From Amphiscolops sp. MND2022 (lineage: Eukaryota), in NCBI GenBank assembly GCA_964187785.1, contig OZ076409.1, forward strand, positions 55,864,001 through 55,928,000: DNA of 64,000 nt, written 5' to 3'. This document shows, one piece after another, positions 1 through 59,700 of this stretch (position 1 is its first letter; each line of letters begins with the position of its first letter). The notes under the pieces are model-generated. The model saw only the letters and a list, made by a program, of their open reading frames with translations. It had not been told where the DNA came from and searched no databases. Made by a program: the position numbers and the translations under genes.

Positions 1-2
1 TG

Positions 3-1424
3 CCGAATCTTCCCCTAAGTGGAGGATTTGAAAATGTCCTAACAGCAATTGACGTATTCTCTAGATATTTGTTCGCCTATCCTCTTACGGACGCATCGGC
101 GATCAACGTAGCAAAAGCCCTCATTGACATTATGACTAAGCACGCATATTTACCGACAACACTTATTACTGACAAGGGTACTGCATTTACGTCCACGATC
201 ATTGCGGAAATTACGCAAATTTTGGGCATAACACTCAAATGTGCAACAACAAAACACCCACAAACAATTGGGAAACTGGAGCGGACCCATGCCTCGCTGA
301 AAACAAACCTCAAAATGCCATGTGGAGAGTACCGCCGACAATGGCACAAATACTTGCCACTAGCAGTACTAAATCACAACACTAGTTATCATGCCAGCAT
401 CGGTTGTGAGCCGACGAGAGTATTTCATGGAAGAATTCCATATAATATCTTGGATCACAAGCTTGGAAATAATCCAAACGAGCAAGTCAACCCAACAACC
501 GAATTTGCTGAAGAAATCCAAAACCGGACAAAAATCCTGATTGACAAAACAAAGCAGAACATTATGCAGTCGTATATCAAGTAAAAAGAATATTACGACC
601 GCAAAGCAAAAGCTGCTCCATTAAAGGAGAATGATTACTGTTTCGTCTTACAGCCGAAAGCGGATCATCAAGGATCAAGAATCCCATTCCGCGATTATCG
701 TTGAGTTGGACCATTTGTAATCCAAAAAGTCCTGCCTAATGAAAGGTATATCGTACGACGACTTAATACAAACAAAACTCAAATATTGCACTGAATTCGC
801 CTCAAAAAGTTTGTCCCCAAGCAACCGCTTGAGGACAATTTCCGAGAACAGCAATTACAGCCTGATGAAGAGATTGTCATTCTGCAAGATGACTTATATA
901 TCATAACGTGGGAAACAGACTTTGGCGAGCAGCTAATTACACGAGGACACAATCCTATTCCGACTAGCATGCCGAACGGCGAACGGCCGAATGCGGCAGA
1001 ACCGAGTCACAGTGACGTAGACGAGAACGAAGCGGATTACATAATCACGCGAGTAGAATTAAACAACGTCAATGCGACGCACAGCCAGAACGACCGCTTA
1101 AGTGATGACGTCACTAAAAGAAATGAAACTACTACAGTGACAGAAAATGAAGAATCTGATTGGCCGAATCTGGCCGTTTCCCCAAAAAACCAAGAAAAAC
1201 CCTTGCCGAATACCGCAGATAGACCGGAAAACGATGAAATTTTTTCAGAAAGAAACTTGGCGAATGAAAACGATACACAAAATTCTCCAAACAGGGGGGA
1301 TGATATTATCGTGCCCGAAATATCTGAAAACGATGCTAGAAATGAAAGTCTGAGCCCTAAAGGAGGGAGGTATAATCTCAGGCCTAATCCCAACCCAAAC
1401 TACTCAGAAGACTTCAGATACTAA
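3..1424 (+). pseudogene. pol: Gypsy pol C-terminus: integrase catalytic core, GPY/F-like region and acidic tail, interrupted by in-frame stops
   Basis: One frame reads PNLPLSGGFENVLTAIDVFSRYLF...ITDKGTAF...TIGKLERTH...VGPFVIQKVL...RYNLRPNPNPNYSEDFRY*. Stops at 582-584, 702-704 and 792-794. Homologous to ORF 60449..61603. Confidence 0.93.
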
Positions 1425-1650
1425 GAATTGAATTTTCCCGCAAATGGGAGTTCTTTTCTTTATCTTTTGTGTTTTTTTTCGGCCCCTCTGACATCTTCTG
1501 AATAAATAATGGGGCATTCTAAAGGGTCCCTTGCAAAAGAGAATAAATATGGGACCAAGAAACCAAGAAACAAAATAGAAATAAATAAAACAGCAAAGAA
1601 ATTAACAAAGTTTACAGTCAGAGTGTACATATATACATATGTACAAATTA

Positions 1651-4600
1651 CTACTTCGGCGACCCTTGCCTAGAGACACTCTTTACAGAAGAAGACGTGG
1701 ACTTGGTTCCAACACTACCAGAACGCTTTCTCTTCAAGCTACTAGGGATGTCCAAGGCAGGCTGCTTGCTTAAGGCACTGGACGACGCAGTCTCTTCCAC
1801 AGTCCTGACGCTGGCAGAAGGGGCAACAGAAGCAGCCTTGTACGACGATAACAGAGACTTATAAATCCGAGACCGCCCAAACGAATCGACAAAAGTCCAT
1901 GGATCGTAGTCGTTAGCGAAGGCGGCTCGTCCAAAATCCACAGATAAGAGCGAGAACTTTGCCAGGCTATCATCGCTGCTACAGTGGGCAACTGAGTCAG
2001 GCACACCAACCATGTAGCTTTGGGACGGGAGCGCCACATCGGTGAAACGTCCTTTGAAATCCGAAGTGTTAATACCCCCGATAACGACAGCGGATAGTGT
2101 AGGGCTGCTAGATGTAAGACAGAGGCAACAGAGCTTAAACAAATACAGAAGGCGAGGTCGATCATGAAGAAATTCGAGACCTATCAAGAATCCAATCAGA
2201 TCTGGCGATGTCTCAGTGACGTCAAAATTAGAGGGATATGTACCTCGGAGATAATCTAAGAGTTCAAGGTACTCAGTTCGGTAAGTGGTCTCATCGGCGC
2301 TGGTCACCCAGGAACGCAGAAGGAAAGTAGTGTATAGGGTCTCAAAATGACGAAGAGCAACTTCAATTGGCCGCTTATGGAGAATAGAGGGATCAAAGGC
2401 GGCAAGTTCCTTAACAATGTCTGAGTTCAACCCAGACTGACGAAGGATAGTATCAAGTAGGTAGCCAATGTACTGGCATGCACTAGTTGCAAAACTTGTC
2501 TTCACCGTCTCAGTAGTCATTTGAAAAACAGATGGAGAAAAATCGCTCCCAGAGTGAATCCCTTCCGCCTTCTGTTTACTGGCAGTACTGACTTTCTGAG
2601 TGAGCTTCTGCCGGACAAGGAACTAGTCCACACCCATGTATTTTCCTTCCGAGGTTTTGAAGGCAAGAAGGACGAACCAGGCATTCTCGAGTGGTGTAGT
2701 ATCAGGAGTATAACATCGGAAGCACAACTTGTGGATGAAGCGGCATACCTCTCCACACAAATAAAACGATGCATCTCGCCTCTGGCTCAAATTAACGACG
2801 AAGCTGGTCACGTCTGAAAACAGAAGCCTATGTCCAAACTCGGACATACAACCGGGTTTCTAAACAATACGAACCATACTAACAATCACTGACGAGAAGT
2901 CGGAAATCTCCAGCTTAACCACGAAGAATTCGTCGCATATGAGTGACCATTCGAAACTCTGTACCTGTAACAAAATGCGCCGTGAAAGTCCTATAGTAGC
3001 AAACCCAGAGATAAGGAAACTAAATCCTATACAAGGGACTAATGGAAACTTAGTCAGGGAAGATAACCCACCCTGGTATGCACTCCTTGCCCTTCCTGCC
3101 TGGGAGAATACTTCGTCAAGTATTGGGTGATCTGTTTCCAATGGACAACCAGTTCGCGGCAAAGTTCAGGAATTTCCTGCAGGTTTAGTTTGCTGGTAGC
3201 TATAGCCTAAAAAGAACAAACCCTGGTAAACATGAGGCTTAATAGCAACTGGATTACAACTTAACCCCTTCCAGTCCCATAGTCCAATTACATTGTGATC
3301 TACTAACACGGCTGAGGTTGGTGGACTTGAGGGCCCATGGCTCGGCATTTGAGTTCCCAAGGGAGATGACCAGAGCTTGCAGTACAGAGAAGAAATCAAT
3401 CTTCCCGAACACAGAGTAGCTCAGCTTGTGCATCAAAGTGGGAAGGTCCAAGCTGTCGAACCGGAAGCAGGTCTGGATTCCTCGGTTAAAGAAAGATGAC
3501 TGATTGAGAGTCTGAATCAAACCAGTGGGGTCTCCGGAGCAGGCAACAATATCGACACGCGTGGACGTGACAGAAAGCAAACGAGCTAGACACCCCAGCT
3601 CACCAGTCAAGTTTGTGGTCGGCAAGGCACTTCGGCACACGAACACTCGGCACAGATCGCTGCCCTTCCAGATTCGTACTGACATAAATCTGAAGGTCTT
3701 CCTCTTCTCGAACTCCACAGAGAAACACTGCTCGTTAGTGACTTGCTCAGCGATGTCCTCCATCGCCCCATTGAAATAATGCTGGAAGATGACCTGAACA
3801 AAACAGTACATTTAGACGTTAACCAAAGACGCAAGGCTAGAACAAACGGTGTGGATACTTACGGTGAGCCGTTCTGCCCCCCAGTCGAAGTCACACAACG
3901 AAGCCTGGTAGTTGGTGAAGGAACTGACTCGGGCCCACAGATTTCGGAGAAGAGAAAGGTCACCTCGGGTCTTGATAAAGTCAGCCACAATGCAGATCTG
4001 AGTTTTGGACTAAGGAGTGACTAAGGCTGTCGTATGCCCTTTCATGAAATCATCGTAAAAGGAAAACCTTTCCCCTATGTCCACGAGCTCAGCATGGATA
4101 AATTTGGGCAATTCATCGGCAAGCTTTAACATGTTGAGAAGTTTTCCGTCTCGCCCCCTTACTCGGTGTTGCACCTTTCCAGTTATGGGGTCAACTGTTT
4201 TGAGGTGTTCATAACGCCACCTCTGGTCTCGGCGCAGGTGCTTCTCGCTTCTGTGGTGACGCAATATTTCAAGAGTCCTTTTGGTCTTTATGGAGAAATT
4301 CCGTTTGCAAATATGGCACCAGACCATAAGCGGATTATGCAATGGATCGGCAGGTCCTGAGATGAAAGACCTGGTCCAACCGATCTTCCTGAAGAATTCC
4401 TCCCGCATTTAGACTCCTCTACGGGACACCCCCTAGTCTTCTTAGTCTTCTTGGGAGAAGGCTCTTCGTGGGACTTCCCAACTCGGGACTGTTCACGTAT
4501 CTCTGATAGCGTGGCGTCCTGACTAGTGAAGTCACTTGTTCCCACTTCGTCCGAAGAACTGACGTTAGGCCTGGCAGTGCTTGTGGTAGCAGAAGGTCCG

Positions 4601-5750
4601 ACAAGGGCTGGTTTTGCAAACGAAGCGGCTATAAGTGCCATTTCAGTGGCGCCATCACTTTCCTCACAGCTCGTGACATTGTCCGAAATTTGCCCAGAAA
4701 TTGAGTGCCTAGGCAACTCTGAACCTGACTCGGACTCGAAACTGGAATCGTTAGAGTCGCCTCGTGCGGGTGTTTGTGCACGGGTCCTCAGCCTGAAATG
4801 GTCAGTTCGTGGTTGACTAGTGGTCGGTTGTCCCTTCAGAGCGTCCAAAATCATTTTCTCCATCGTAGTGTATGTGAGACTCATGGTCTCGTTGGTGAGG
4901 ATTTTGAGCAAGTGATATATCTGACCCTCTGAGAAGGCTACTGTTGGATGCCCTAGAGGAAGGCGAAATGCTTCCGCAGTCTCAAAATACTCTTTCAGGA
5001 GAGCTCGACTACGTCCTGATAGCTCATGCAGTTTGAAACGAGCTTGGCCAGTAGATGTACTGGGGGCAGCAGCATCAATCTGGTGGGAGCTAGACTCATC
5101 TCCTCCTTCCGTTCCCGACTCAGATCCTTGGGGAATCCCCGAGTATAGAAGAGGCACGGTTGGGTCTTCACTCTCTTCGAACAGTTCCCCCTCACTTGCT
5201 TCAGTGAGGTACCGCACGACGCTCGCCCCGTCAGGCAAGGGAGGGGCGTCATGGAGAGAGGAGGAAGTATCTTCTTCTGACGGTCTCCTTTCTTCTCTTG
5301 ATTCTTCGCCTTCATTATACTGAACTAGGAGTAATTCAGTCAATTGGGTCCTGGATATTGGAGCAATTTCGAGGTTGGCCTCAATGGACGTGAAGCTTGC
5401 AACACCCTGTCTGGTTTGGGGTTTAGGCTCGGGAGTACTAGTACGGTTGCGAATATCAGGTGCAGAGGAATTCTCCCCAGACTCGTAGTTCTTGGGTGGC
5501 TGTTCATCGGCGGGATTAGCAATGATGGTTTCTTCTTGAATAGAAGATTGGACTTTCTCCATAATCCGGACCATCGTCTCAGCGAAAACGTAGACATCGG
5601 TTTCACTATCCACACTCTGAGGGGACACTTGCAGTCCACTTTCAGATGTATGCGGAGCCTGAGTTGTAGGATCGTCGGGAGTTCTAACACTTGTGGGGTC
5701 TGGTGTCTGAAAAATCCATTCTACCGCTTTTGAAATCTTCCGGAAGTGTC
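1651..5750 (-). pseudogene. Antisense intron-containing cargo gene of element A: long disordered N-terminus, C-x2-C-x16-H-x5-H zinc finger, hAT-transposase-like body lacking evident catalytic motifs
   Basis: ZnF WCHICKRNFSIKTKRTLEILRHHRSEKHL in ORF 4010..4408. GT-AG introns at 3862-3794, 3307-3207, 3071-2965 and 2883-2814 join the ORF pieces. Homologous exon by exon to 55366-59700. Carries a few stops and frameshifts; the 5' end is unresolved. Confidence 0.75.
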
Positions 5751-6776
5751 TTGAAAATCAATAGAAACGTGTTAACACGTGGCTCATGATGGAAACAGGA
5801 AGCAAATATGAACAAATTTCGACGTTGATCAAGTTGAGTTAGTTCAAAATGAAAACCAGACAAACCTGTGTTATGAGACATGTGGATGATTCTACGTCGT
5901 TGGGACAGCAATCCTTATGGGATTCTAGAAGATGGGGATAGTGGCCGGGCGCGGCTGCAGTTGAAGAGAAGACACGAAGAAACCCAAATGGGGAGAATCC
6001 AAAAACGGAGTCAGGAGTGAAAGAGGGTTACGGTTGTTAGCAAGGATCCAATTATAAAGAAAGCAGAAATGTAAAGAATTTGAACGGTAAAAGAATCGAA
6101 ATTCTGTAACAATTAGTAAATTGAAAGTTGGAGTTCGTGGCTGAAGAAAATTACCAGAATAATATTATTGAATTATCTACATATTTAAAATGTACATGGA
6201 GTCTGCCAGCGAAATGTACAGAAGACCTTCTTTATATGCAACTTATTCAATTAGTGGCCAAATATGGCTGTTTGTCCCATTTTGTTTTACCGTTTTGTTC
6301 CACTATTCTAGTTCTGTTCAGTTAGAATGTTTGCCATTTTGAATTATTCGAGATTATTATTTTTTGCCATTTTATTATTCATTTTTCAAATTATCGAAGC
6401 TTGGCTCTGACTGGCCGAAGCCATTACGAGAAATTTTGGTGACGCGTGCCGTTAATTGCTTACAAGCGACCCGTTAATTACCCACTTGAGACGGGTGTAG
6501 TTGATATTCATAAGTCGAGCGCCATTTACACCTCTTCTAGTGATGACACTGATGAGGGGTAAACATCAGGTTATCAAAAGAAGCCGACTAATTATGAAAT
6601 TCCATTCAAGAATGTTTGTGACGAATAGGGGCAATCGACCAAAGTTTTAACCGCCAAATTGAAACTTCGGGAAAAAGCCTAACTCGGCTAGATTCTTGGT
6701 TCAGACAAATTCATTCTACCTAAAACTTCATCTCAACTCAGTTGCAAAAGCTTCAAAAATAGTAAAGAAAGTCATC

Positions 6777-7561
6777 ATGAACAAATATAACCTCGCAAGG
6801 AAACTATTTGGTCTGGAAGAATCTGACTCTGATGATTCTGGAAGATCAGTAATATATATATCGAGCAGCGAGGAAGAGTCATCAGATTGGGAGACCGACT
6901 GTTCCACAGACGCGGAGCAGCTTGTTGCGAGAATCGAAAGAGAAGTCACCTCCAGCCCCATGCTAATCGGGGGCCGCATAATGACTACGGAGGAATCTTC
7001 AGAAGACGAACCAGAAGCTGGCCCCAGTTCTTCCCAGAAGCGAACAGACGTGATTCCGAAGTTTGACCACAAGTACTTTGACGAGGAGATGTGTTACGCT
7101 CCCCCAAAGAAAGCAGCTAAATCTCGAATTGAACTTTGCAAAACCCTAATGCCCGTGCCAGAGTCGCCTATGTCACCGCCTGATCACGAAAGAGGGCCGA
7201 GTATGGATACCCCCTGATGCAGCCTGTTATGGGAGGTTTTCATGCCTCCTATCATGTGCAAAGCACCAGGCCCTACGAGAATATTAGCACGAAGTTTTAT
7301 TCAGGATGCATGGTCTGTGGCAGATCTTCAGAGGCAATCAAGAAGGAGAAGGTGGAATGGTACGTCCCGAGGTCCAAGCCTAGAGGGGAACCCGAATACA
7401 TAACAAAGATCAGAAGGGAAGCGTACGAAAATGGACTGAACGCTGGCGCCTTTCTCTTTATAACACCCGCAGTGTCGCAGGCTGCCGCCTGTGACGGTAC
7501 TTTAATAACGACGACAGCGACAAGCCAAGAGACATTGCTCCGAACTTTGCCTACATTTTGA
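6777..7561 (+). CDS. Sense accessory ORF(s) of element A: acidic/Ser-rich N-terminal part plus a CxxCGR domain; split at a TGATG overlap (7215-7219)
   Basis: GCMVCGRS...RREAYENGLNAG...SQAAAC matches GNCHWCGRT...RSRAYL(N/D)GFEAA...QPRAC in ORFs 53187..53540 and 48903..49256. Confidence 0.6.
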
Positions 7562-8479
7562 GCAAGTATATTTTGTATTTCAAAACTTACTTTTAGTAAC
7601 AATATTTGCTCTCAAACCATTACATTTTCCAATACGTTGCAGTTCATATTAGTCTGTTAATATTACGATTTGGGATAGGCCAAATCAGTTTGCTGTTGTA
7701 TTTACTGTAGAATAGAATCAAAATGCCAGATTGATTTGATGCAATAACAAACAACAAGCAAGTTAATTGCGAGAAGGAAACGTGTTCAAGTGCGGAAACG
7801 CCCTTTCTCGGCGACGTAACTTGCTGTACATTGTCAGCCAATCATATCGTTCCTTTTTGAATTATGGGCGCTTTTATTACATAATGGCCGAATAAGGCCT
7901 TTTGACTTAACGCAGTGCACGCCTGCTGGTATTTATGTCAAATGGCCGGTTCTGGCCAATTCATGCATTATAGTATTTTGTTGTCTAATTAAGCAAGTAA
8001 TTACTCGGAGCTAACTTTCCAAGATTTGAAACTAAATTAAAGCATTTGTAACGCTTTAATGTCTGTACAATCTTAACCTAAAAAGATGGACGATTAAGGC
8101 CATCTTACAATGTCTCTTTGAAAGTTGTGTATTTTATGATTTTGGGCCTATTCCGGCCCTAACATGAAAGTGCGTTCTCATATATATTTGGATTGTATTG
8201 AAGCAATATACACGTGATGATGCATTCCACTCTCAATAACTCGTGTCGGCACGTGCCTTTACTACACTCCGCTGTAAGGAATGTGAGCGGAGGCATTTGT
8301 TGACGCTTTGATATGATGTTTCAGTTAATAACTGATTTGATACTTCTGTCTTGATCAAATGACCTTTGAATGCCATTTCCTAAATGTCCCCTAATAATAT
8401 GCAGTTGTCGGGACATTCTCTGTGAAGTAATAAATCACGTGATTCCATTTTTCTTGACTAGTTATGTAAAGTATGTGAA

Positions 8480-9212
8480 TGTCATCCCCTCATGAGTATA
8501 TATACTGATACTCGGCCTGAGTGGGACACAATTCATTTGAGACGCTACTAGTAAAGATTGAACTACAAACGGCTTCGCTGTTATTTTCCGTATTGAATAA
8601 TTCATTGTTAATTCGGAACTGTTTCTATGCCTACTACTAGAAAACAGTCAAGAAAGTCAAGAGGACTCGAAATGCTGTCAGATATCGAGAACGTAGACAT
8701 TATGTTAGGTGAAAATCACTTCAACGCAAGAGAGAGAAAGAGAGAAGGTAGTTTGAACAGTAACTTGCGTAGAAGGTCTAGAAGCTTCGCAAGCAATGAA
8801 TCTGAGAATGAAAATGGAAATGTAGGTAGAAATCAGAGAAATGATCACGCTAGAACAAATACCGAATATGATCAAAATTCAGTTACAGCCAACTCTAGTG
8901 CTGAGATTAACAGGTTGTCAAGTGAATTGAATTCCCGCATTTCACGGGAAATGGACGAGATGATGAATTCTGTGAGTGTTCAGATACAGAGGGCCATAAG
9001 CGACGCGATAAGCACTCAGGTACTTCCTCAAATCCAAAACGTTATTATGGCCGGATCGGGACAAGGGACCAGAAAATGATGGGACGTTCCGGCTGAGAGA
9101 CCGGAACTGCCTTCCGAAGTTCAGCGAAACTTGAATGCGAAAAACAGCTTAAGAAATGAACAAGATGGGAACCAGTCAGACAATGATTTTCCTGGTTTAA
9201 ATGTTCATGACA
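8480..9212 (+). repeat. Putative 3' LTR of element A containing the N-terminus of a gag-like ORF (ATG 8627)
   Basis: Terminal inverted TGTCATC...CATGACA. ORF MPTTRKQSRKSRGLEMLSDIENVDIMLG is homologous to the ORF in 16144-16743. The left boundary is uncertain because no clear PPT is visible. Confidence 0.5.
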
Positions 9213-25755: not shown

Positions 25756-26308
<553 letters not shown>

Positions 26309-44412: not shown

Positions 44413-47210
44413 ATATAGCACCAAATTAACGATTATTCACGTTTTAATCTGACGAAAATTTAACCTAAACTTTCTACTGTAAGATTTGTGCTATAAAAAT
44501 TTTGACATAGAAAAAATAAAAGTTACCTTCGAAACAAAGATGATAACCCAATCAGAGCAAATGAGCAAAACTCCTCAACGAGCGAGCAACTCAGCTATAT
44601 AATATATTAGAATTGTAAGAGAATTGAGTAAGTTCAGACTTCGTTTCAACAAATAATTGCTGAAGGAATTGAATATGAAAGGAAAATTGATCTGCCAACC
44701 AACTAAACACCTGAGTTTTTCTGCGTCCAATAATTGGTGAATTATCAATGGTTAATGATAAATCTTCATGATGGATCAAATACATTGACCACGTAAAGCA
44801 AAATGATTTTGATAGTTTCACCTTTTCAGGTAGAACCTTTCTTATAAGCGCTTGTATCTAAGTTGAATCTTATGTACTATCTTCAAACTCGTTTGAGAGG
44901 TTATTCATTGTTTGTCCTCGACCAATGAGCCCTTGTTTAGAATGATTTTCTCGAATGAAAATAGTATGAGCAAGAGATCCATTTCATGAGATATTCGATC
45001 AAATTTGTAAATATTTGAAACAACGCTTTTGAAAGAACAATTCGACTCAAAACAATTTCTGCTTTGAAAGACCAATAGAGATGCTCGTACAATCAATCAA
45101 CTTCTTGGACAATCAAACAAAACTTTGAATCTCATATATCGTTTTCAAAAGCTGAGATAGTAGTAAAAATCTTGAAATATGTTGAAATATGTGGCACGGT
45201 TATTGCACTTTCTAACACGGTCATTTCACTGGGAAAGCTCATAAGCTAGACTGAATATGTAAATCCGACAGCAGTTATGGAGATTGTACGGCTCCAATGT
45301 TACGTAGCTAACAGTCAGTGGTGACTACGGTGCATGAATTTTCCTGCTACCGTAGCTGCACCGTGTAAAGGCAGCGTAGCTACGTTGCAAGGAAACGGTT
45401 GCAACAATTGGGAAATGATAAATTAACAGCGCTATTGCTGGAGTCCACGCCTGAGATTGTATTTGTTGGAAAAAATATTACTAAGGGTTGCATTTTGTTA
45501 CAATTGGGCAGCAAAAACTGTTGGTATGACCATTAACGAGCAAGGCGAAATTTCGAGTAACTTCAGCACACATTAAAAAGAAACTGTGAAGTCGCTTTCT
45601 GCACCTATTTACTGCAATTTTACATGAAAATTAGACAGCCAAATCATCAAACTCTCCAATCTCAGTCATTTATCAAAAAATCCTATATCTCTTGTTACCT
45701 GATTTTTTGCATGAATTGTTCTAAATTTTTGGTGAATCAATAGAGCTGCAAAAAACTGAAAATGACTTTTAGTTTTTGAAACGAGAAAATTGAGGGTGCA
45801 TGCATTGAGATTTGGAAAAATCTGAAAACACGTCAATGTGCTTTAAAAAAATCCGTGCAGCCTACAGAATTTTTGAAGAAATATCACGCAATGAATGAAC
45901 AAATTTTCAGGAGAAAATGTTTTAATTTTAACAGAATTCCCTGCAAAAACTACTCAAACAGTTGAAACTTCAAATAAAGCTTAAAAAACTCAAATGAAAA
46001 AGCTGAAATTAAACGATGTCAGAACTACAATCTCATCAACAAAAATTCATCTGATTAAAACCATCAAAAGCATTTTACAACAATAATTAAAACACAATCT
46101 AGCATCCACAAAACGAGAGTCGTTAAACTCTTATGAAGTCCTCGGCAGACAAAACTAGCTTAGCTTCTGAGTATCATCCATGCTGCTTCCATCCAATGTG
46201 AAGAGACAGCAACTCTTCAAGATGACCTGAAACAATCTAAAGACAACCAAAGGAATATCGTAAAGTAAGAACTGTGCCGCAAAAAAGTAAAAAAAAAACG
46301 CTATGCTTATTAATCGTTTGAGAGAGTTGAGAGAGTATGACAGAAACAGAGGAAGATGATCGAAATATACAAAAGAGGGAGAACTACAGGAAAAAGACTG
46401 CGATTACTTTGAAAAACAAGGCGTCTAAAATCCTACCCTCTGGTGAAAAGAAAGATTTTGGAAGCAAAATCCCACAGTGCCGAAACATATATCGGTAGGC
46501 ATCAAACTGACGTCTGCCTGCATGGGAAGCGTGCATCCTAACTACTGGCGACATGAACAAAGTGTGCTGAAAAGTGGACCATTTGCATACCATTCTGTGA
46601 GTAAACGTAAACAAACTAGTCGTTGTAATCGTAGTGCACATAACTCTTCATTCCATGTGATACAGTATTTTAAGCTTTATAACCAATAATTTTTGCTCAA
46701 ACAAATAAGCTCGCAAATGCCTCCAACTCCTTGATGTTGATCTGAAAACGCGCCAAGTTGTAAAGAAATTCTAATAAATACATGAAAAAGCATTGCATCA
46801 GCGGAATATTTAGCGGTATTGTTTTTCTATGCATTTCCCAAAATTATGCCAAAACTGCTTGGTAGCCCATAAAACCATGTAGAAGGTTCAAGCATTTTCA
46901 ACTAGGGTTAGAGCCTACATCAAGTAAATCAATAAGTTTGCATCCTCAGACACTTAAAAAAACAAACGACTGGGCTTAGCAAGGTTTTAGTCATCCCATT
47001 TAGGTGTTTGATGTTGACAACAATTACAACACTGTAACAAGAGGCGCAGTGACACTGCGATATTTCTGGTAAGATATTACAAGACGCCTGCAAAAAATAA
47101 CTCTTTCTAGAGTCATTTCTTGACAAAGTGAAATATATAACCAAAATTTACAAACTGAAAATTTCCCTACACATGTGTAACCTACTTCATACATGTTTGC
47201 TTGGGGTACG

Positions 47211-47326
47211 GAAAACTCAACACATGAAAATCAACACAAGAAAACTCAACGCAGAAAACTCAACACATGAAAACTCAACACAAGAAAACTCAACACAGAA
47301 AACTCAACACAGAAAACTCCACACAA
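47211..47326. repeat. 14-15-bp minisatellite (GAAAACTCAACACA) x8; duplicate at about 51494-51610
   Basis: Direct inspection. It follows GGGGTACG and may be the subterminal region of a DNA transposon into which element B inserted. Confidence 0.85.
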
Positions 47327-47410
47327 CTAATTAATTTCAGTTAACACCTCAATTGAGTCTAATTTCTGGATTAAACAATTCCTTAAATGCCTGCCGTAAA
47401 GAATTGTATA

Positions 47411-47977
47411 TGTGATAATCCTCTTGTGTGCGGTCCTCATTTATGACCACAGAGTCATTTAGATCAATGTTTTGCATGCTCAAAGGTTGTATTGGCGTTC
47501 TAAGTTCGTTTAAATTAGATGGCCTGAAAGGATTATCCCTTATCTCACCTTCTTGATTTTCTGGCTCAGATGCGTTTTCTTCACCGTCGTCATTACTTGC
47601 GTATTTTGAAGTTCCTGCTCTGGGGGTGTTTTGTTCTCGATATCGTCTGTTTGGTACAGATTGTGTTCTTCTGTTTTTTTTCATCTCTTTAAATATTTTC
47701 TCTAGTTTCTCATCCATTTCTTTTCTCAAGTTTGCTACTTCCTTGTTCGTTTTATCTGATATTCTTCGGGTCCAAATTTGCATTTCATTTTCATTCTGTG
47801 TTCCACTGTCTAGAGCTATTTCTTCGTGCCTAACTGAACTAACATTTTCAAAGTTACTTAAAAATTCGATAACAGTTTCATTACCTTGTGATGTTTCTAT
47901 TTCGGATGTGCTCAACTCTCTCTCTCAAGCGAGGGTGATTGTCCTCGTCTAGATCTTCTATTTCTCTTGTTACCCAT
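47411..47977 (-). pseudogene. Duplicated copy of the LTR-embedded gag-like N-terminus of element B
   Basis: Same peptide as 51695-52261. Confidence 0.55.
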
Positions 47978-48902
47978 TTTGTCAGATTAAAATAATGTTT
48001 TGGAGAGAAGAATTTCAATTAGAATGATGAGCAAAGTAAAATTGGGTTGAAATAAAGTTGAAGAAAATATGCATTTTGTCAAGTTATCAAAGTTGGAACA
48101 AAGGTTGTGAGGGTGAAAAGAAAGGTCTGATCAGTCTGAAAGTTTTCTGTTGAATGAATATTGTTGGGTTCCTTACTCTCCTTTTTGGTTCGGGCTAAAT
48201 GTAGCTGCATGACAACCAATTTTTGGAATGTCATGGTTACATCACGGTTATGTAATTACTAAAAATAGTACCCAATCTGATATAAAATTAGGTTTGTAAG
48301 TTACATCGCTTCTATAAATAGATTCCTGCATGACGAATATTTTTCTGCGTTTTGATTGGTCATCACACTAACTGCAACAATCCGTTCATCGTTAATGAAA
48401 AAATGTGGCAACACCTAGCATGACTCAAATGTAATGCAAGTATTAATTTCAACATAGAGTAGCACGTAAGATTAAGTCAACGTAATGAGTCATACATCTA
48501 AAAGATATAGTTGAAGAGTTGAAAAATGCGATGTTGTACTGCAGTATGCTGCAAACTTTGTGCGGCAGAATAATCCAAATATTAAAGTCCTTACGTATTA
48601 ATGCATCATACAAATCATGTATAATTCATTCATTTCACTACAAATTGTGTTGAGCGGTATTATTCATCAAATATGTTAACACCTTGCAACATTTAGTGAA
48701 TTGTTTATGAATGGATATTCAAAAACAAGTATTTCACAAGTATTTCATAAACAAATATTTCACAAGTACAGTTAACTAGAATAGAAAACAAATTCAAATA
48801 ATGCTGGTGTATAAAAGTCATATATGAATACATGTAAAACAAGTTTCAAGAAGTGATGAATTTTCTCCAGTTTGAACTAGTAGCTGGGCGAGTCATTTGC
48901 CT

Positions 48903-50048
48903 CTATCGCTGCTCTACGGGTCCAACACAAGCTCTAGGCTGCGACAGGCCAGCATTTTTGAAGCAAATGAGTGCAGCCTCGAACCCATTTAGATAAGCTC
49001 GTGACCTGATGTTCCGATCTCGCACTGTTTTGCCGGGGAATTCCGTGGCAGTAGCATAGGCTGCCAGCGCATCTAGGGCGACTTCATCGTAAGTCCTGCC
49101 ACACCAATGACAGTTTCCTTGCACGTGTGGCATAACCGGAGTGTTAAGTTGCCTTCGTGGAGGGTTTCTTTGTTGCTGACTAGTGCTGTCACCGTGTACA
49201 GGACCCACATTGGTCGTTTCCAAGTTGCTATGTGTTCCCTGGGTGTCAAGATACAACTGCCCTCGGCGTTATAATAGTAAGCAACAGTTCCAGGCCCATT
49301 GGGTTGTAGTGTTTCTGCATTTAATTTGTATGGGATTTGTGCTATGTCAAGGGTAGCTGGATTTGGTAATTGAAATTGCGCAGCTGGCATATCATACTGG
49401 TTTATTACCGGCGTCTGCAATATTCTTTCCCCATTATACATACGAGCATAATTAGGTTGCGGAATCTCTTGTGGGATTACCACTGGAGCAATGGGTACAG
49501 GTCTTATTGGCCCATTTTTTTGGGTGAAAGCAGGGAGGTTGTTGTTGCCAGTATCAGGTTGTGAAAGCCTTTGCCTCGATAACCTCTCAGCTTTTATAGG
49601 TGGAACAGCTAGTACGGGTCTGCCATAATTGTTCCTAGGGACATTCGCGAAGTTGGCATTTAACAACAGTTCTTCGCTATTGCTTCCGTTTGATTCAAAA
49701 AATGAGATTGGCGAGATATTAGGCAGTTCGGTGTTCTCAGAAATCATACTCAGCATTTCTCTCTATATCGGTCCCTGTTATGTCAATTACAGAATTTTCT
49801 CTAGTTTCGGGCTCACTTACTGCAAATAGTCTGGCAGCGTTTTCATTTACGAATGCAGTCATAGGGTCGTTAATTGGCCCTCCGATTCTGAATCTTAAGT
49901 CTATAGGTTCCGAATTATGTTGTTCAGTCAGAAATTCTTCCCCAGAATCGCTCGAGATGTTTATAAGTCCGGGGGAGTTTGTCGAGACAGATTGCATATC
50001 TTCATCAATTGTGAAGAGGTGAGGATTTTTTGAAGGTCTGTTGTCCAT
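48903..50048 (-). CDS. Duplicated copy of the sense accessory ORF cluster of element B (three overlapping ORFs, last with a CxxCGR domain)
   Basis: ORFs 49737..50048, 49073..49756 and 48903..49256 mirror 54021..54332, 53357..54040 and 53187..53540. Confidence 0.55.
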
Positions 50049-51694
50049 TTAAGATTGAGATTATCAACTGGTCTGTTTCGCGAATATTTGCCGAATAAAA
50101 ATCTCCCACTTCTTTTCAGTCGATGGGCATTTCAACGGGTTTCCCAAATACGGTAGGTAGTTTGTCGAGTCATCTTCTTCTTTGTTTACCATTTTCCCGG
50201 TAATTTTCAGGGTAAGCGTTAGGTTGTGTTTCAACTTTATTTAAATAGCTCCATAACAAAATGAAATTTGTCCTCACAATTTCCATATATGGTAGATAGA
50301 GGTGTTAATTCTTCATTCAAGATCACAGAGACACTATAATCACTTGTAAACAAATCTAAATGAAAATTAGCATGATGAATTTAACAACCAATTTTTATTT
50401 TTTGAATTTTGCATATTTCATGAAATCTTACATGTGATTTTAATTGGAATTAATAACATCAACAGGACTGCTTCCATCCAATGTGAAGAGACAGCAACTC
50501 TTCCAGATGACCTGAAACAATCTAAAGACAACCAAAGGAATATCGTAAAGTAAGAACTGTGCCGCAAAAAGTACCGAAAAAACTATTCTTATTAATCGTT
50601 TGAGAGAGTATGACAGAATCAGAGGGAGAGGAAGAATGATCGAAATATACAAAAGAGGGAGAACTACAGGGAAAAGACTGCCATTACTTTGAAAAACAAG
50701 ACGTCTGAAATCCTACCCTCCGGTGAAAAGAAAGATTTTGAAAGGAAAATCCCAGAGTGCCGAAACATATCTCCGTAGGCATCGAACCGACGTCTGCCTG
50801 CATGGGAAGCGTGCATCCTAACTACTGGCGACATGAACAAAGTGTGCTGAAAAGTGGACCGTTTGCATACCATTCTGTGAGTGAACGTAAACAAACTAGT
50901 CGTTGTAATCGTAGGGCACTTTTCTCTTCATTCCATGTGATACAGTATTTTAAGCATTATAACCAATAGTTTTTGCTCAAACAAATAAGCTCGCAAATGC
51001 CTCCAACACCTTGATGTTGATCTGAAAACGCGCCAAGTTGTAAAGAAATTCTAATAAATACATGAAAAAGCATTGCATCAGCGAAATATTTAGCGGTATT
51101 GTTTTTCTATGCATTTCCCAAAATTATGCCAAAACTGCTTGGTAGCCCATAAAACCATGTAGAAGGTTCAAGCATTTTCAACTAGGGTTAGAGCCTACAT
51201 CAAGTAAATCAATAAATTTGCATCCTCAGACACTTAAAAAAAAAACAAACGACTGGGCTTTGCAAGGTTTTAGTCATCCCATTTAGGTGTTTGATGTTGA
51301 CAACAATTACAACACTGTAACAAGAGGCGCAGTGACACTGCGATATTTCTGGTAAGATATTACAAGACGCCTGCAAAAAATAATTCTTTCTAGAGTCATT
51401 TCTTGACAAAGTGAAATATATAACCAAAATTTACAAACTGAAAATTTCCCTACACATGTGTAACCTACTTCATACATGTTTGCTTGGGGTACGGAAAACT
51501 CAACACATGAAAACTCAACACAAGAAAACTCAACGCAGAAAACTCAACACATGAAAACTCAACACAAGAAAACTCAACACAGAAAACTCAACACAGAAAA
51601 CTCCACACAACTAATTAATTTCAGTTAACACCTCAATTGAGTCTAATTTCTGGATTAAACAATTCCTTAAATGCCTGCCGTAAAGAATTGTATA

Positions 51695-52261
51695 TGTGAT
51701 AATCCTCTTGTGTGCGGTCCTCATTTATGACCACAGAGTCATTTAGAGCAATGTTTTGCATGCTCAAAGGTTGTATTGGCGTTCTAAGTTCGTTTAAATT
51801 AGATGGCCTGAAAGGATTATCCCGTATCTCACCTTCTTGATTTTCTGGCTCAGATGCGTTTTCTTCACCGTCGTCATTACTTGCGTATTTTGAAGTTCCT
51901 GCTCTGGGGGTGTTTTGTTCTCGATATCGTCTGTTTGGTACAGATTGTGTTCTTCTGTTATTTTTCATCTCTTTAAATATTTTCTCTAGTTTCTCATCCA
52001 TTTCTTTTCTCAAGTTTGCTACTTCCTTGTTCGTTTTATCTGATATTCTTCGGGTCCAAATTTGCATTTCATTTTCATTCTGTGTTCCACTGTCTAGAGC
52101 TATTTCTTCGTCCCTAACTGAACTAACATTTTCAAAGTTACTTAAAAATTCGATAACAGTTTCATTACCTTGTGATGTTTCTATTTCGGATGTGCTCAAC
52201 TCTCTCTCTCAAGCGAGGGTGATTGTCCTCGTCTAGATCTTCTATTTCTCTTGTTACCCAT
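51695..52261 (-). pseudogene. gag-like N-terminal ORF inside the putative 3' LTR of element B
   Basis: ATG at 52261: MGNKRNRRSRRGQSPSLERE, then a 2-nt slip in a (GA)n run, then LSTSEIETSQ..., a coiled-coil segment, and EDRTQEDYH ending at the CA terminus. Same position as the 8627 ORF in element A. Confidence 0.55.
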
Positions 52262-53186
52262 TTTGTCAGATTGAAACGCTGTTTTGGAGAAAAGAATTTC
52301 AATTGGAATGATGAGCAAAGTAAAATTGGGTTGAAATAAAGTTGAAGAAAATGTGCATTTTGTCAAGTTATCAAAGTTGGAACAAAGGTTGTGAGGGTGA
52401 AAAGAAAGGTCTGATCAGTCTGAAAGTTTTCTGTTGAATGAATATTGTTGGGTTCCTTACTCTCCTTTTTGGTTCGGGCTAAACTTAGCTGCATGACAAC
52501 CAATTTTTGGAATGTCATGGTTACATCACGGTTATGTAATTACTAAAAAAAGTACCCAATCTGATATAAAAATAGGTTTGTAAGTTACATGGCTTCTATA
52601 AATAGATTCCTGCATGACGAATACTTTCCGTCGTTTTGATTGATCATCACACTAACTGCACCAATCCGTTCATCGTTAATGAGAAAAATGTGGCAACACG
52701 TAGTATGACTCATTGCAATGCAAGTATTAATTTCAACTTAGTGTAGCACGTAAGATTAAGTCAACGTAATGAGTCATACATCTAAAAGATATAGTTGAAG
52801 AGTTGAAAAATGCGATGTTGTACTGCAGTATGCTGCAAACTTAGTGCGGCAGATTAATCCAAATATTAAAGTCCTTACGTATTAATGCATCATACAAATC
52901 ATGTATAATTCATTCATTTCACTACAAATTGTGTTGAGCGGTATTATTCATCAAATATGTTAACACCTTGCAACATTTAGTGAATTGTTTATGAATGGAT
53001 ATTCATAAACAAGTATTTCACAAGTATTTCATAAACAAATATTTCACAAGTACAGTTAACTAGAATAGAAAACAAATTCAAATAATGCTGGTGTATAAAA
53101 GTCATATATGAATACATGTAAAACAAGTTTCAAGAAGTGATGAATTTTCTCCAGTTTGAACTAGTAGATGGGCGAGTCATTTGCCT

Positions 53187-54332
53187 CTATCGCTGCTCTA
53201 CGGGTCCAACACAAGCTCTAGGCTGTGGCAGGCCAGCATTTTTGAAGCAAATGAGTGCAGCCTCGAACCCATCTAGATAAGCTCGTGACCTGATGTTCCG
53301 ATCTCGCACTGTTTCGCCGGGGAATTCCGTGGCAGTAGCATAGGCTGCCAGCGCATCTAGGGCGACTTCATCGTAAGTCCTGCCACACCAATGACAGTTT
53401 CCTTGCACGTGTGGCATAACCGGAGTGTTAAGTTGCCTTCGTGGAGGGTTTCTTTGTTGCTGACTAGTGCTGTCACCGTGTACAGGACCCACATTGGTCG
53501 TTTCCAAGTTGCTATGTGTTCCCTGGGTGTCAAGATACAACTGCCCTCGGCGTTATAATAGTAAGCAACAGTTCCAGGCCCATTGGGTAGTAGTGTTTCT
53601 GCATTTAAGTTGTATGGGATTTGTGCTATGTCAAGGGTAGCTGGATTTGGTAGTTGAAATTGCGCAGCTGGCATATTATACTGGTTTATTACCGGCGTCT
53701 GCAATATTCTTTCCCCATTATACATACGAGCATAATTAGGTTGCGGAATCTCTTGTGGGATTACCACTGGAGCAATGGGTACAGGTCTTATTGGCCCATT
53801 TTTTTGGGTGAAAGCAGGGAGGTTGTTGTTGCCAGTATCAGGTTGTGAAAGCCTTTGCCTCGATAACCTCTCAGCTCTTATAGGTGGAACAGCTAGTACG
53901 GGTCTGCCATAATTGTTCCTAGGGACATTCGCGAAGTTGGCATTTAACAACAGTTCTTCGCTATTGCTTCCGCTTGATTCAAAAAATGAGATTGGCGAGA
54001 TATTAGGCAGTTCGGTGTTCTCAGAAATCATACTCAGCATTTCTCTCTATATCGGTCCCTGTTATGTCAATTACAGAATTTTCTCTAGTTTCGGGCTCAC
54101 TTACTGCAAATAGTCTGGCAGCGTTTTCAATTACGAATGCAATCATAGGGTCGTTAATTGGCCCTCCGATGCTGAATCTTAAGTCTATAGGTTCCGAATT
54201 ATGTTGTTCAGTCAGAAATTCTTCCCCAGAATCGCTCGAGATGTTTATAAGTCCGGGGGAGTTTGTCGAGACAGATTGCATATCTTCATCAATTGTGAAG
54301 AGGTGAGGATTTTTTGAAGGTCTGTTGTCCAT
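53187..54332 (-). CDS. Sense accessory ORF cluster of element B (acidic/Pro-rich ORFs plus a CxxCGR-domain ORF)
   Basis: Three overlapping ORFs; the last is homologous to 7217..7561. Confidence 0.6.
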
Positions 54333-55365: not shown

Positions 55366-58300
55366 ATGGTTCGTTCAAAAAGCACTTCTAATCGGCGTCG
55401 CAAAGCTTCAAAGGAGAAAAGGACAGCTTCGACTTCCCAGGATCAACCATCAACCACTGCAGCTATTTTGACAGGTAAGCTTGAGTTCATTTTCTTTGTG
55501 TATTATTGTTGCTTTCTTGCTTTTTTGAGACGTCCCAGATTTTTAAATACAAGTTGGCCAGACTCGTATTTCATTGACATATCTTTTCGATTTATCAACT
55601 TCCTGTCTTCAAGTTTTTTGAACGGAAACGCTAACTTCTTGTTTTGGTTTCTAGCATATTTCCATTCCGAATTTTATTTCAGGTTCTATCTCAGCTACAC
55701 AAACAAAACGCATTGCCGAGTGTTCTGAGCCGCGGAAATCTGCTAGAATCCAAAGGACTCTGCTTGAATGAGGCTATAATCCCCGATTTTCCCTTGATGA
55801 GGAAGACCTCCCTCCAGCTTTTGTTCCTCAAGTACTACTGGAAGATAATTTTGATGAACTTGTGAACGCCGTTGATTCGCCAGACTGTGTTTCTCTAAGT
55901 GGGAAGCAAGCAGATACAGCTGGGGATATTCAGATTGGAACAGCTGATAAGGACGACACTACTGAAGTAACGGAAAATACTGACGCTCCTATAAGCGGAA
56001 TTCCAGCAAATCCATCGGCACCTCTTGACGCCGCTTCTTCAAAATTCGTGCACTGTAAGGATAAGGACGTTCTGACAACCCAGACTGGGAACACTCCAGT
56101 TTCAGCCAAATGATCCCCTTTTACTAGGTATCTAATTAAAAAGACTGATCCATCTAAGGAACAAGGGAAAAACGACACGTGTGCTGTTACCTCGGAGCAA
56201 AACAGCCCCAAAAATTCTGACCCCCAAGACACTTGGGCAGCTCCTTTCGAGAGACTTTTAGCCGAAGCGGCAGAAGAAGCTGCTATGAAACAGATTCAAC
56301 TCAACTCCAACTTAATGGTTCCGGATTCTGCTCAAACCGATGAGCGCGGCGGGAAAGAAGGGCGCCCCGTGACTGAGGCTATTACCACAACAAATCCACC
56401 AGATGTGGTTGGAGACAATTATCAGCCATCCGATTCAAGTTCAAACAGTAGCACCGATTCCGATCTGGAGATGTCTTCCACTGAAGAGTTTGTCGCTACT
56501 CCAGAGAAGCCTCTCAGGAAGCGCAAGGCAGAGAAGAAAAGTAGTCCAGCCAAAAAACGGGCTGAGCCTCAACATATGCTCGCCGAATGGATGTACGATA
56601 AGTACCCCATCCTCAGGTTCTTTGCCGCTGCACCTTCTGATGCGGCCGGAAATCCAAATAAGTACCGCTGTCGCGTTTGTATGGTAGAACTTTCTCTCAA
56701 AACCAAAGGTCCTTTGGAAATGTTACGGCACTATCGGACTGATGCGCACCTAGTACGGGAACACAGATTCCGTATGGAGACTCCTGGACTTGCACTATTC
56801 GATAAACAGTGCGTAGAATTGACCGGAATGGCCCTAAAGTACGCGAAGGAGAGAGCCAAACGGGAGTACCCGATCGCCCCCAAGCTTGGCGATTATTACC
56901 TCCTAGTTGATCAGCAAGAACTGCCAGAAAAAACGGAACCAGATAACCCGGACAAGGAGACATTGTCACAATTGACCCTACTCAAGTTCGGATTATGGCA
57001 TGGTGGACATTTGGATTCTCTGATCGCCCTCTGGCATGACCTGATCACGGAGACAAGGACTTCAGAATCTGTTTCCACACACGATTGGAGACCACACAGG
57101 ATCTTGGTAAGTTGTTTTGGTAGTCGTTTTTGTCTAAAAACAGTCTAGGTATTTGGAAAAGGTTGTCTTTTTATAGGCGCTCCTAGCCCACATGTTTCGC
57201 GAGCTCCTATCATACAGTGTCACTTCCATTGAGTCCTCGGGCAGTTACTCCCTCCGATTGGCATTCACGGCACAAGAGACGAGGCTCTTCGTGAATTTCT
57301 GGTCCGGAAACTCATTACACAGCATGTGTTCAGCCGTTCTCCCCGGCCGACTTACCAACCAGTCTGCCTTGATTCCAATCATTAGCAGTTTCTTCGCTCT
57401 ATTAGACAAAGAAGTACACCTGCCTTTCTTAGCTGGGTTTTCTCGACGTCTTGCTTGGACTTTTTCCCGAGTCCTACCTCAGCCCAAAAGGATCTGTAGT
57501 ACACCAAAATTCGGTCCTGAGGACTTGGAGGATCTTCTGCTTGTCCCCACAGTCCAAATTTTGACAGGCTCGACTTCAGGAGTGTTCTGGATTTCCTGCT
57601 TCTCCGACTGAAATCTGCTTGTGGAAGCTCCTGGCTGTCATCCCTTCCAAACTTTGAAAAAGTTTACCTTTTATATTTCATTTTCCAAACATTTTGTAGG
57701 AATATCTGCTTGGTGACATAATTTTATTCTCGTGTAAACGTGGCTATTATGGCTCTGGTTCACAGTTCTTTTTCTTGTGAAGGTTCCTTCCCTTTTAGGA
57801 GAAATTAAGTTTCCTTTCGCATAAGACACTTCGCAGATATTTCTTTGTTGCATATCCAAGCTTGCAGCATAATACGGCACAATTGGTCTTCTCAATTAAT
57901 TTTTCAAAAGGTTTTGCTCACGATTACGTAATTTAGTATGTTGTAACGAATGAGTCACTATACGATATTTGTTTCGACTTTCTGCACGTGAATATCTGTG
58001 CTCGACTGTTTCTTTGATTTTGGCACCCGCTCATTTTCACTTCGTGATACGTGGTGTTACGTAATAGAAGTCAAAATTTTTGTGTTGTTACAGCTGGCGT
58101 TCAATCTTGACTATGACCTAATACAAGCTGTTGAGATTCTCGATCAACTGATTCAGAACTGGGAGCACGTCACTTCCCATGTGCGGGACAGCAGGAGAGT
58201 GGCTGCATATCGTTCTCATATCCAAGAGGTTTCTCTTCTTATTTGCTTCCTTAGTGGGTATTCTTCACATGGTTTTTATATAATTTTTGGTTTCCTTTCA

Positions 58301-59700
58301 GCCATCTGGGATGGATGATATCATCACCAAGGATCGTGTGCTGGTTGTACGACTGTTTATCATCCGCAACATTTTGAGTCAATGTTAGTCTTCCTCTTTA
58401 ATTGTTTTACTTCAAGTGTCATTTCCAAAGTAGACTTCAACGTATCGCACAAAATTCCTTCTGTTTTGGTGGTTCCTTATTAGTTTCGTATCAAGCTTCA
58501 TAAGTTTCTTTCTGTTCTAGACAATTCAACCTTCAAGGAAGTAGATGCGAGTGTAGCTGGAGGGTTTCGCAACTACAACCACTTCTGTGTCTTCGTGTAC
58601 ACACAGATGCAAACCATCTTCCCTACGTCCTTCCTTGGGAGCATCAGCAATTGGGACAATTACATGCAATTAAACATGAGTGAAGTTACTTTGCCTATCA
58701 AGACAGTTGATGAATTTCTGCAGGATAAAGACCTCTCCGATTTGTTATATAGGAGCAAGATCCCTACCCCACGGAAATTCGCTGAGCAGGCCATATCATT
58801 CTACCGTTATTTTATCAAACAGTTGCTTTCCTGTGAAATGGCTACGTCTTCATTTGCTCGTGGGCTTTCGTCGTTTGATGAAGCTGTGATATGCGATCGA
58901 GAGGAGGCGCAGTATGAAGACTCTATCCAAACCCTTGCCGGATACTTCGTCCAAAAACGATGGATCTCCCCCCATGTAAAGCCTGTTGTAGTGAGCGAGT
59001 ACTGTTCTCTCGTCACCAAATTCCGTGCAGACAAAGTTTCTAGTTCAAATAAATATGTCAGTTTCATTTCCTGCTACTATGAGCTTCAATGCAGATTGGA
59101 ATTGTCCCGCCTCTTTAAAGTTTGTTGTGAAACGCTCAGAAGCCCTTGTACCCACCTCCAAACTTTGTTGTACCTTTGCCTGGCTTAAAATCTAGTAAAA
59201 TGGAATTCTCTTCTTGCGTGAGGAGCTTTCAGTGTTCCCTCAGTTCCATTCAAAAGGTAGAGAGTCTTTTCTTATCAACAGCTGCACTTCCTCGTGCATA
59301 CGATCTCCTCAACCAAAGGCCTGGGCTACTTCTCAAATGCAAGTTCTCAGTATCGAATCTCCTGAATTCGACTCATTTTTTGAAGATTGGCTTGCTGTCT
59401 ACTTTGGAGTCCTGTTACGCCACGAATGTTGCTGTTGACAGTCGTACTTGAATTACAGCAGGGAAAGAACCCAGCTTTTGCTCTAGCCGTAGTAGTAGTA
59501 GTAATGCTAGTTTCCCTGTAAAGTCTTTTTCAGCAAAATCTTCTCCAGAGAAATCTTCTCCTGAGAAATCGTCTCCAGATAAGACTAAACAGCCAGTTGC
59601 TGCAGATTCCGGTGTTGCCCCAGCTGTTCGTAGTTTGATTGAACTTCCCTTCCTGACTGCTTCAACTTCTGCTGTCTCTCTCTTCCAGTGGTGATAAGAA
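55366..59700 (+). pseudogene. Antisense intron-containing cargo gene of element B: zinc finger plus hAT-transposase-like body
   Basis: Exons 55366-55474, 55683-57106, 57177-57661, 58094-58228, 58302-58383 and 58521-about 59700, with GT-AG introns. ZnF YRCRVCMVELSLKTKGPLEMLRHYRTDAHL. Homologous to 1651-5750. Several stops and frameshifts. Confidence 0.75.

Follow-up and report, generated by a model that had tools for sequence, protein, structure and literature searches.

A five-exon antisense gene and a divergent sense reading frame form a fixed accessory module in an abundant Ty3/Gypsy clade of Amphiscolops

Two Ty3/Gypsy elements with the same 3' module

We analysed a 64,000-nucleotide stretch of the Amphiscolops sp. 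MND2022 genome (GenBank assembly GCA_964187785.1, contig OZ076409.1, positions 55,864,001 to 55,928,000), here called the window, which holds parts of two long terminal repeat (LTR) retrotransposons, element A on the plus strand and element B on the minus strand. Both show the same gene order, i.e. pol with integrase, an antisense gene of about 4 kb, a spacer of about 1 kb, a sense open reading frame (ORF) with a CxxCGR motif and an LTR, as a preliminary description of the window had stated. The antisense gene and the sense ORF, together the module or cargo, lie head to head between integrase and the 3' LTR, which the sense ORF enters. Positions are those of the window unless a locus or contig is named.

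Element A
3..1424, plus strand: 3' part of pol with integrase core (PF00665, E 6e-11), GPF motif and acidic tail; stop codons break this copy
1651..2813, minus strand: antisense exon 5, helical region and Ser/Lys-rich tail; AG acceptor, phase 1; stop at 2625 in this copy
2884..2964, minus strand: antisense exon 4, 81 nt here, 82 nt in other copies
3072..3206, minus strand: antisense exon 3, 135 nt
3308..3793, minus strand: antisense exon 2, 486 nt; RNase H-like domain predicted, catalytic acids not invariant
3863..5719, minus strand: antisense exon 1, long low-complexity N-terminus, then zinc finger at about 3863-4414
5720..6776, unstranded: divergent spacer with non-coding blocks identical over four families (alignment of 5 copies)
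6777..7561, plus strand: sense ORF, frameshift near 7200 here, 280-286 codons in many copies; motif resembling a SUMO-interacting motif (SIM) near 6849-6881, CxxC at about 7307-7318, third invariant Cys at about 7490, inside the LTR
7473..9212, plus strand: 3' LTR, 1740 bp, TGTC...GACA, 97.3% identical to the 5' LTR
8627..9212, plus strand: gag start, first ~195 codons, within the LTR; 5' LTR equivalent at L041:3521-4106

Element B
59881..64000, minus strand: pol with protease end, reverse transcriptase (RT), RNase H and integrase (Pfam RVT_1, RT_RNaseH, Integrase_H2C2, rve)
56555..59720, plus strand: antisense gene core, from profile matches and splice sites; N-terminal part upstream of 56555 not delimited
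57106, 57177-57661 and 58094-58228, plus strand: end of the antisense finger exon, exon 2 and exon 3
58302-58383 and from 58521, plus strand: antisense exons 4 and 5
53187..54332, minus strand: sense ORF, frameshifted, with SIM-like motifs and a CxxCG domain that enters the LTR
51695..53230, minus strand: 3' LTR with internal gag start, ~1536 bp, 96.6% identical to the 5' LTR; target-site duplication (TSD) TATAC/TATAC
46183..50465, minus strand: tandem duplicate of the B sense ORF, 3' LTR and 1.2 kb of flank, 97.6% over 4290 nt

A and B are both complete Ty3/Gypsy elements of ~15.8 kb with paired LTRs, TG...CA ends and 5-bp TSDs, and in each gag is followed by the protease-RT-RNase H-integrase order by which Ty3/Gypsy elements are recognised; the top PDB sequence matches are foamy virus and Ty3 RT. 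The extents first given, 1-9212 for A and 64000-51695 for B, were accurate at the 3' ends and too short at the 5' ends, as both elements run beyond the window. The 5' LTR of A lies at G000:C1:55857367-55859106, 6.6 kb before window base 1, and is found together with gag, protease and RT in locus L041, giving a total length of 15,846 bp and the TSD GGAAT/AGAAT (5 bp, one mismatch). B starts at about C1:55931414, with its 5' LTR and gag in locus L042.

LTR divergence is 0.020 and 0.033 for A and B (Kimura two-parameter distance), and both window copies are degraded by stops and frameshifts, with open frames present in many other copies. Full elements measure 14.3-16.1 kb in ten of ten LTR pairs, bearing out the earlier proposal of a Gypsy clade exceeding 12 kb. 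The LTR pair of another family shows no difference over 679 nt (100% identity), evidence that the clade has inserted very recently, and some families have LTRs that are 99-100% identical.

Next to B, a 4.28-kb tandem duplication (46183-50465 and 50468-54749, 97.6% identical) reflects either a local duplication or an assembly effect; an LTR of 4.3 kb was rejected here, as the repeat takes in flank. Three element copies occur in a row at G000:C13:16091945-16123246 and at C3:27465308-27495361, spaced by 15.16 kb and ~14.2 kb, looking like tandem arrays with shared LTRs.

The module is linked to pol

The cargo proteins of A and B are homologous and very diverged, as initially described: the finger exon is 27% identical over 192 aa (E 1e-10), exon 2 23% over 127 aa (E 2e-7) and exon 5 21% over 287 aa (E 4e-10). 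The corresponding pol identities are 71% for RT and 64-66% for integrase. First-look searches of the 1.07-Gb assembly returned 7006 candidates with the A exon-5 query (124 of them scored matches), 5435 with the B query and 7045 with the sense domain, numbers that are not copy numbers.

Forty cargo loci were picked by cargo similarity alone (best 30 plus best 10, the window's own two included), and in 39 of them integrase lies tail to tail with the cargo, at most 1.5 kb away, in the same arrangement as in A and B. Starting from pol, antisense cargo was found 2.6-3.1 kb downstream of 41 of the 46 RT matches at least 89% identical to B, where 46 of 77 listed RT rows were compared with 57 of 150 listed cargo rows; the other five lack cargo among the matches listed. 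Both elements of the more distant RT group (82-84% identity) are matched by all three exon profiles.

That an ordinary active DNA transposon is nested here by chance, or that the cargo is neutral, hitch-hiking DNA, might be considered given the many hAT elements of this genome (150 scored of 2215 PF05699 candidates), the single cargo locus without integrase in its 1.5-kb flank and the five RT matches without listed cargo. However, site and orientation are the same in families only 20% identical, the catalytic acids are not kept, and both genes are under purifying selection (see below). No terminal inverted repeats (TIRs) were seen around the cargo in A or B, and among the 25 longest inverted repeats listed for each element none brackets the cargo at equivalent sites. 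We therefore regard chance nesting as extremely improbable, in agreement with the view taken at the outset.

A and B belong to an animal Ty3/Gypsy clade that is very abundant, has been active recently and carries a fixed accessory module of two genes. Animal LTR retrotransposons usually carry gag-pol and at most env. A full-text literature search, with Repbase, Dfam, GyDB and subscription journals outside its scope, gave no account of an animal Gypsy element that combines a transposase-like, intron-bearing antisense gene with a sense ORF diverging from it; this does not contradict the initial suggestion that the clade may be undescribed. Acoel genomes are described as dominated by LTR elements in the available part of PMC9911081.

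Exon structure of the antisense gene

Cross-family alignments define five exons with GT-AG introns and identical phases in A-type and B-type families, and the inner exon lengths of 486, 135 and 82 nt are conserved at ~20% protein identity. In 12 of 14 copies, exon 2 measures 486 nt and is flanked by AG and GT, the exceptions carrying deletions, and exon 3 has 135 nt in all eight copies where the anchor matched. Exon 4 has 82 nt in seven of nine copies; one of the remaining two is a base short and the other is locus L048. There, at L048:5339-5460 (G000:C13:45.957 Mb), intron 4 is exactly absent and exon 4 reads into exon 5 at the predicted junction, which is thereby supported, hinting at recombination with a cDNA of spliced antisense RNA. 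L048 also contains a ~2.1-kb internal tandem duplication of the N-terminal part of the gene. Exon 1 of A is disrupted by a deletion near 5708 plus a further frameshift/stop, and is open from the start codon through the finger in two of the four other copies examined. Introns in antisense survive retrotransposition since the genomic RNA is sense.

Purifying selection and reshuffling of the module

Between families, the antisense exons are saturated at synonymous sites (pS, the proportion of synonymous differences, 0.75-0.97) at a nonsynonymous distance (dN) of 0.12-0.68. For the sense ORF, dN is 0.08-0.34 and pS 0.66-0.90, with dN/dS of 0.05-0.08 where computable. Pairs below 35% identity were excluded throughout. 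The adjoining integrase is far less diverged, with dS of 0.39-0.99 in six pairs. Hence, both cargo genes are under purifying selection, and the notion of an old, selected module is upheld.

Vertical inheritance, which had also been proposed, is not supported. In 15 of 15 second-family copies, identity to copy A at the DNA level falls from 80-90% to ~58% within ~200 nt past the integrase stop. Using 28 of 30 loci (two dropped because of gaps) and a group named beforehand, the cargo tree separates two cargo types with 100/100 support, a split that the integrase tree rejects (approximately unbiased test, p-AU 0.0003); a mere rate difference between integrase and cargo was consequently rejected as a full explanation of the identity step. 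L016 and L017 are 97-98% identical to L018 in cargo and 83% in integrase. Among 41 B-side elements whose RT is 89-95% identical, 32 have cargo just 57-68% identical, and several elements combine an A-like sense ORF and LTR (89-93%) with divergence toward the antisense gene. The conflicting trees and the B-side mismatch indicate that the module has been reshuffled among pol lineages; it is ancient and selected, yet not simply vertical. We infer template switching between co-packaged RNAs as the cause.

A predicted transposase-like fold

The predicted model of exon 2 adopts an RNase H-like fold, a class consistent across nearly all top structure-search rows, with the longest alignments to hAT and IS256 transposases. 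About 150 residues N-terminal of this core lies a zinc finger of the form C-x2-C...H-x4/5-H, of which the C-x2-C and the two His are invariant in six of six sequences, and everything after strand 5 is predicted to be helical. An atlas search with the finger led to GTF2IRD2/FAM200-type fingers (0.84-0.87), ZBED2 was a weak hit in the PDB search (E 1.2), and the Pfam zf-BED profile did not match it. We take the finger-core-helical layout to resemble that of hAT/Mutator transposases. A transposase-like fold behind a BED-like zinc finger is thus suggested for the antisense product, based on the models.

No DDE triad was found. With columns located by secondary structure after the Hermes layout, the best strand-1 column of the exon-2 alignment has E in 67 and D in 3 of 120 sequences, the next column D in 40 of 121, and the strand-4 columns at most 8 D of 122. 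The exon-5 model, built from nine sequences, is predicted helical with a mean predicted local distance difference test score of 50, is confident only for residues 131-232, and gave no clear fold match, its atlas results being unrelated. The hAT dimerisation profile PF05699 matched none of 123 exon-5 sequences at E<=1, the model being of low confidence after residue 232 and the likeness one by eye only; longer homologues of exon 5 were absent among 6257 candidates, which is weak evidence.

Sequence searches gave nothing above cut-off in Pfam for any cargo part, and nothing below E 0.08 in the PDB with alignments A3 (finger), A5 and A6. In public protein sets, the cargo homologues among the matches listed (best 150 of 854 cluster representatives at E<=0.001; best 120 of 204 and of 303) are all unnamed exon-sized ORFs, nearly all from ENA assemblies, and 20 clusters yielded no name. 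None of 72 pattern matches in JGI metagenomes was confirmed.

From the predicted structures, the antisense gene probably descends from a hAT/Mutator-type DDE transposase captured in antisense that has lost catalysis. Two observations weigh against this: a hAT-specific assignment of the exon-2 fold is tied with other RNase H folds, and profile and profile-profile comparisons of the cargo with hATs of the same genome were negative. Alternatively, the gene may stem from another RNase H-fold protein, such as a copied integrase/RNase H or an intron-bearing host gene, with an unrelated finger. This origin is open to the same tie, but integrases align only to residues ~17-113 of the model (81-86 residues), whereas Hermes and ISCth4 cover the leading helix too (101-105 residues), and the position of the finger together with the all-helical remainder follows the hAT/Mutator layout. 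We consider it a less likely origin than a captured transposase.

Also present in the genome are hAT transposases of 597-697 codons that appear intact and occupy a single ORF, together with a THAP12/ZMYM-like transposase in two frames (among loci L051-L055 and L057); cargo similarity was undetectable in the copies of these loci.

The sense ORF and the divergent spacer

The sense protein is acidic and of low complexity, with a C-terminal domain of ~80 residues that is conserved in all families and has three invariant cysteines; the N-terminal part is unalignable between A-type and B-type families. The ORF crosses the LTR junction, placing an invariant Cys inside the LTR in seven of seven sequences. 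Pfam gave no match, and env was rejected as its identity, there being no env match in this acidic, low-complexity sequence. At residues 25-28, eight of nine segments, as well as L062, share a hydrophobic core that leads into Ser and acidic residues, a pattern defined post hoc from the same data and matched by 0.25-1.9% of shuffles. We take it to resemble a SIM, i.e. a V/I-V/I-x-I core with Ser/acidic residues.

In the spacer, non-coding blocks are identical in five of five copies from four families with saturated synonymous sites, and include words that we read as CCAAT-, YY1- and ETS-like. Hence, we infer that the spacer is a bidirectional promoter with 5' UTR.

LTR organisation and priming

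Gag begins inside the LTR, with ~195 codons in A and ~170-190 in B. The preliminary description had noted an LTR-like segment with a gag-like start at the 3' end of the elements; the gag-like start is real and explained by this internal position, and the segment is the true 3' LTR. A second tandem element was rejected as its source, the gag start being found inside both LTRs. Each 3' LTR and solo LTR of the clade carries such a truncated gag ORF.

The primer-binding site (PBS), TGGTGACAGGAG, lies immediately 3' of the B 5' LTR without a spacer and has one mismatch in A. It complements tRNA 3' ends (890 genome pattern matches, control 0), one of which belongs to a tRNA-Leu(CAG) gene. In the 5' LTR the gag frame reads on through the PBS, so that the tRNA-Leu PBS is protein-coding. 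We note a large tandem array of tRNA-Leu-like 3' ends, the clade's primer tRNA type, at G000:C8:35.587-35.637 Mb and beyond, which appears to hold most of the 890 matches, judged from the first 100.

A polypurine tract (PPT), typical of Ty3/Gypsy though not the basis of its classification, was absent before the 3' LTR at nine of nine junctions (window 7453-7472 and 53231-53250; loci L044, L046, L047 and L059-L062), where 7-11 of 20 nt are purines and the longest run is 2-5. The LTR start was set by the paired 5' LTR in three families and by homology in the remainder. The 13 bases preceding the LTR are invariant in four A-type families, synonymous positions included, which suggests that a non-purine plus-strand priming signal may sit inside the sense ORF, just before the LTR.

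These features bear on the possibility that the module assists replication or integration, with the transposase-like protein binding LTR ends or host chromatin so that the pre-integration complex is imported or targeted, and/or either protein compensating for the missing PPT in plus-strand priming. The predicted RNase H-like fold, combined with a finger of DNA-binding type, would suit such a helper, the sense ORF covers exactly where the PPT should lie and keeps its invariant Cys inside the LTR, and the near-complete linkage to pol may mean that the module is needed. The same idea is put forward for plant antisense ORFs in the available text of PMC7264820. However, module alleles 57-68% identical work with near-identical pol, a poor fit for a close RT/integrase partner, and an antisense, separately promoted gene would not by default be packaged with Gag-Pol. 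We hold a helper role to be improbable.

Proposed mechanism

We tentatively favour a pair of element-encoded nuclear regulators with anti-silencing function over such a helper role, at a confidence falling somewhat short of even. A DDE transposase of hAT/Mutator type would have been captured in antisense and, on losing catalysis, become the antisense gene. In this orientation the introns would not be lost when the sense genomic RNA is reverse-transcribed, and a separate promoter would permit expression apart from gag-pol. Both proteins would be made from the shared divergent promoter and would serve the element inside the nucleus, where the transposase-like protein would sit on element sequences as a DNA-binding scaffold and the sense protein would bind SUMO and weaken SUMO-dependent transposon silencing. 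Through template switching between co-packaged RNAs, pol lineages would exchange entire module alleles, and divergent alleles would persist for long periods, as expected of counter-defence genes. In Drosophila, SUMO is needed for piRNA-guided transposon silencing, according to the part of 10.1101/533091 available to us.

Self-limitation is the opposite possibility, in which the dead transposase-like protein represses the element, the SIM protein recruits SUMO silencing and the antisense transcript could feed small RNAs. SIM motifs are known in silencing factors as well as in antagonists, host proteins derived from hATs, such as those of the GTF2IRD2/ZBED type, act as regulators, and the antisense transcript would converge tail to tail on pol. 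Antisense double-stranded RNA control is discussed for plant elements in the accessible text of PMC7264820. The clade nevertheless counts thousands of copies and includes families whose LTRs are 99-100% identical, which implies that any brake is weak, and strong protein-level selection indicates that RNA alone is not the point. We rank self-limitation below both the favoured anti-silencing pair and the helper role.

Taken in full, the anti-silencing proposal comprises a retrotransposon-domesticated class II transposase and a SUMO decoy as a two-gene counter-silencing cassette on a bidirectional promoter, with ancient alleles traded between pol lineages and replication without a canonical PPT; that every part holds is unlikely. 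If true, a retrotransposon would here encode an antagonist of animal piRNA/SUMO silencing, a likely cause of the clade's genome-scale expansion. Should the sense protein bind SUMO, it would by itself be a candidate antagonist of piRNA-type silencing encoded by a retrotransposon. Direct tests in RNA, small-RNA and chromatin data are feasible, as the clade has thousands of copies, of which many retain open frames and some have identical LTRs.

Relation to known systems

Antisense ORFs with TRP28/PF04195 are described for the plant Retand/Tat Gypsy group (Retand, maize Grande gene23, rice RIRE2); for Grande an own antisense promoter is shown, and a regulatory role is proposed for plant antisense ORFs, whose origin and role are stated as open in the available portions of PMC7264820 and PMC11963269. 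The present clade shares with these elements a long region between pol and 3' LTR holding a conserved, selected antisense ORF. It differs in the predicted RNase H-like fold and finger, the plant ORFs being reported there without similarity to other transposable elements (PMC7264820; PMC11963269). Further differences are the animal host (Wnt genes are present in the assembly), the five-exon antisense gene, the absence of a TRP28 (PF04195) match in the cargo in Pfam searches, the second, head-to-head sense ORF, gag inside the LTR and the missing PPT. The clade may be a case where the origin of an antisense ORF is traceable, via the transposase-like fold.

The predicted BED-like finger, RNase H-like core with leading helix and helical remainder liken the antisense product to hAT transposases (Hermes) and to the dead hAT-derived GTF2IRD2, FAM200 and ZBED. 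Domesticated hAT-derived proteins have lost catalysis, as the antisense gene probably has. Unlike hATs, this gene has no detectable sequence similarity to them, no TIRs and a long low-complexity N-terminus; unlike the hAT-derived host proteins, it is kept by a retrotransposon in thousands of copies and not by the host. One class of mobile element appears to have domesticated a gene of another.

A functional analogue of the favoured mechanism is VANC of the Arabidopsis VANDAL transposons, described in the accessible part of PMC6719617 as family-specific anti-silencing proteins encoded by transposable elements. VANC resembles the module in being an element-encoded accessory protein with family-specific divergence, but is encoded by Mutator-type DNA transposons of plants and targets DNA methylation. 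Anti-silencing is a demonstrated function of VANC and a proposed one of the module, and no homology between them was seen, no comparison having been aimed at it. In contrast to the env-like ORF3 of errantiviruses, the sense ORF is acidic, of low complexity and Cys-containing, with no env Pfam match; in contrast to HTLV HBZ, the antisense promoter would lie within the element, as judged from the spacer, and not in the 3' LTR. The missing PPT and the ~195 gag codons inside the LTR question the generality of textbook priming and LTR layout.

Other features of the window

Between the elements lie several coding pieces of host sugar transporters (PF00083) on the minus strand (9930-10279, 29168-29947, 31298-32164 and 36252-37440), at least partly duplicated paralogues. 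A gag-like remnant at 16591-16746 is 40% identical to A gag. The sequence 20243-28400 is decayed and very rich in A, and an RT-like match within it, near 21532-21828, is weak; the cargo profiles found no match within these two regions. A direct repeat spaced by 2.9 kb (25030/27979) and a long GAT microsatellite array (25600-27000) are also present, and a perfect 62-nt inverted repeat with a 13-nt loop is located at 44276-44412.

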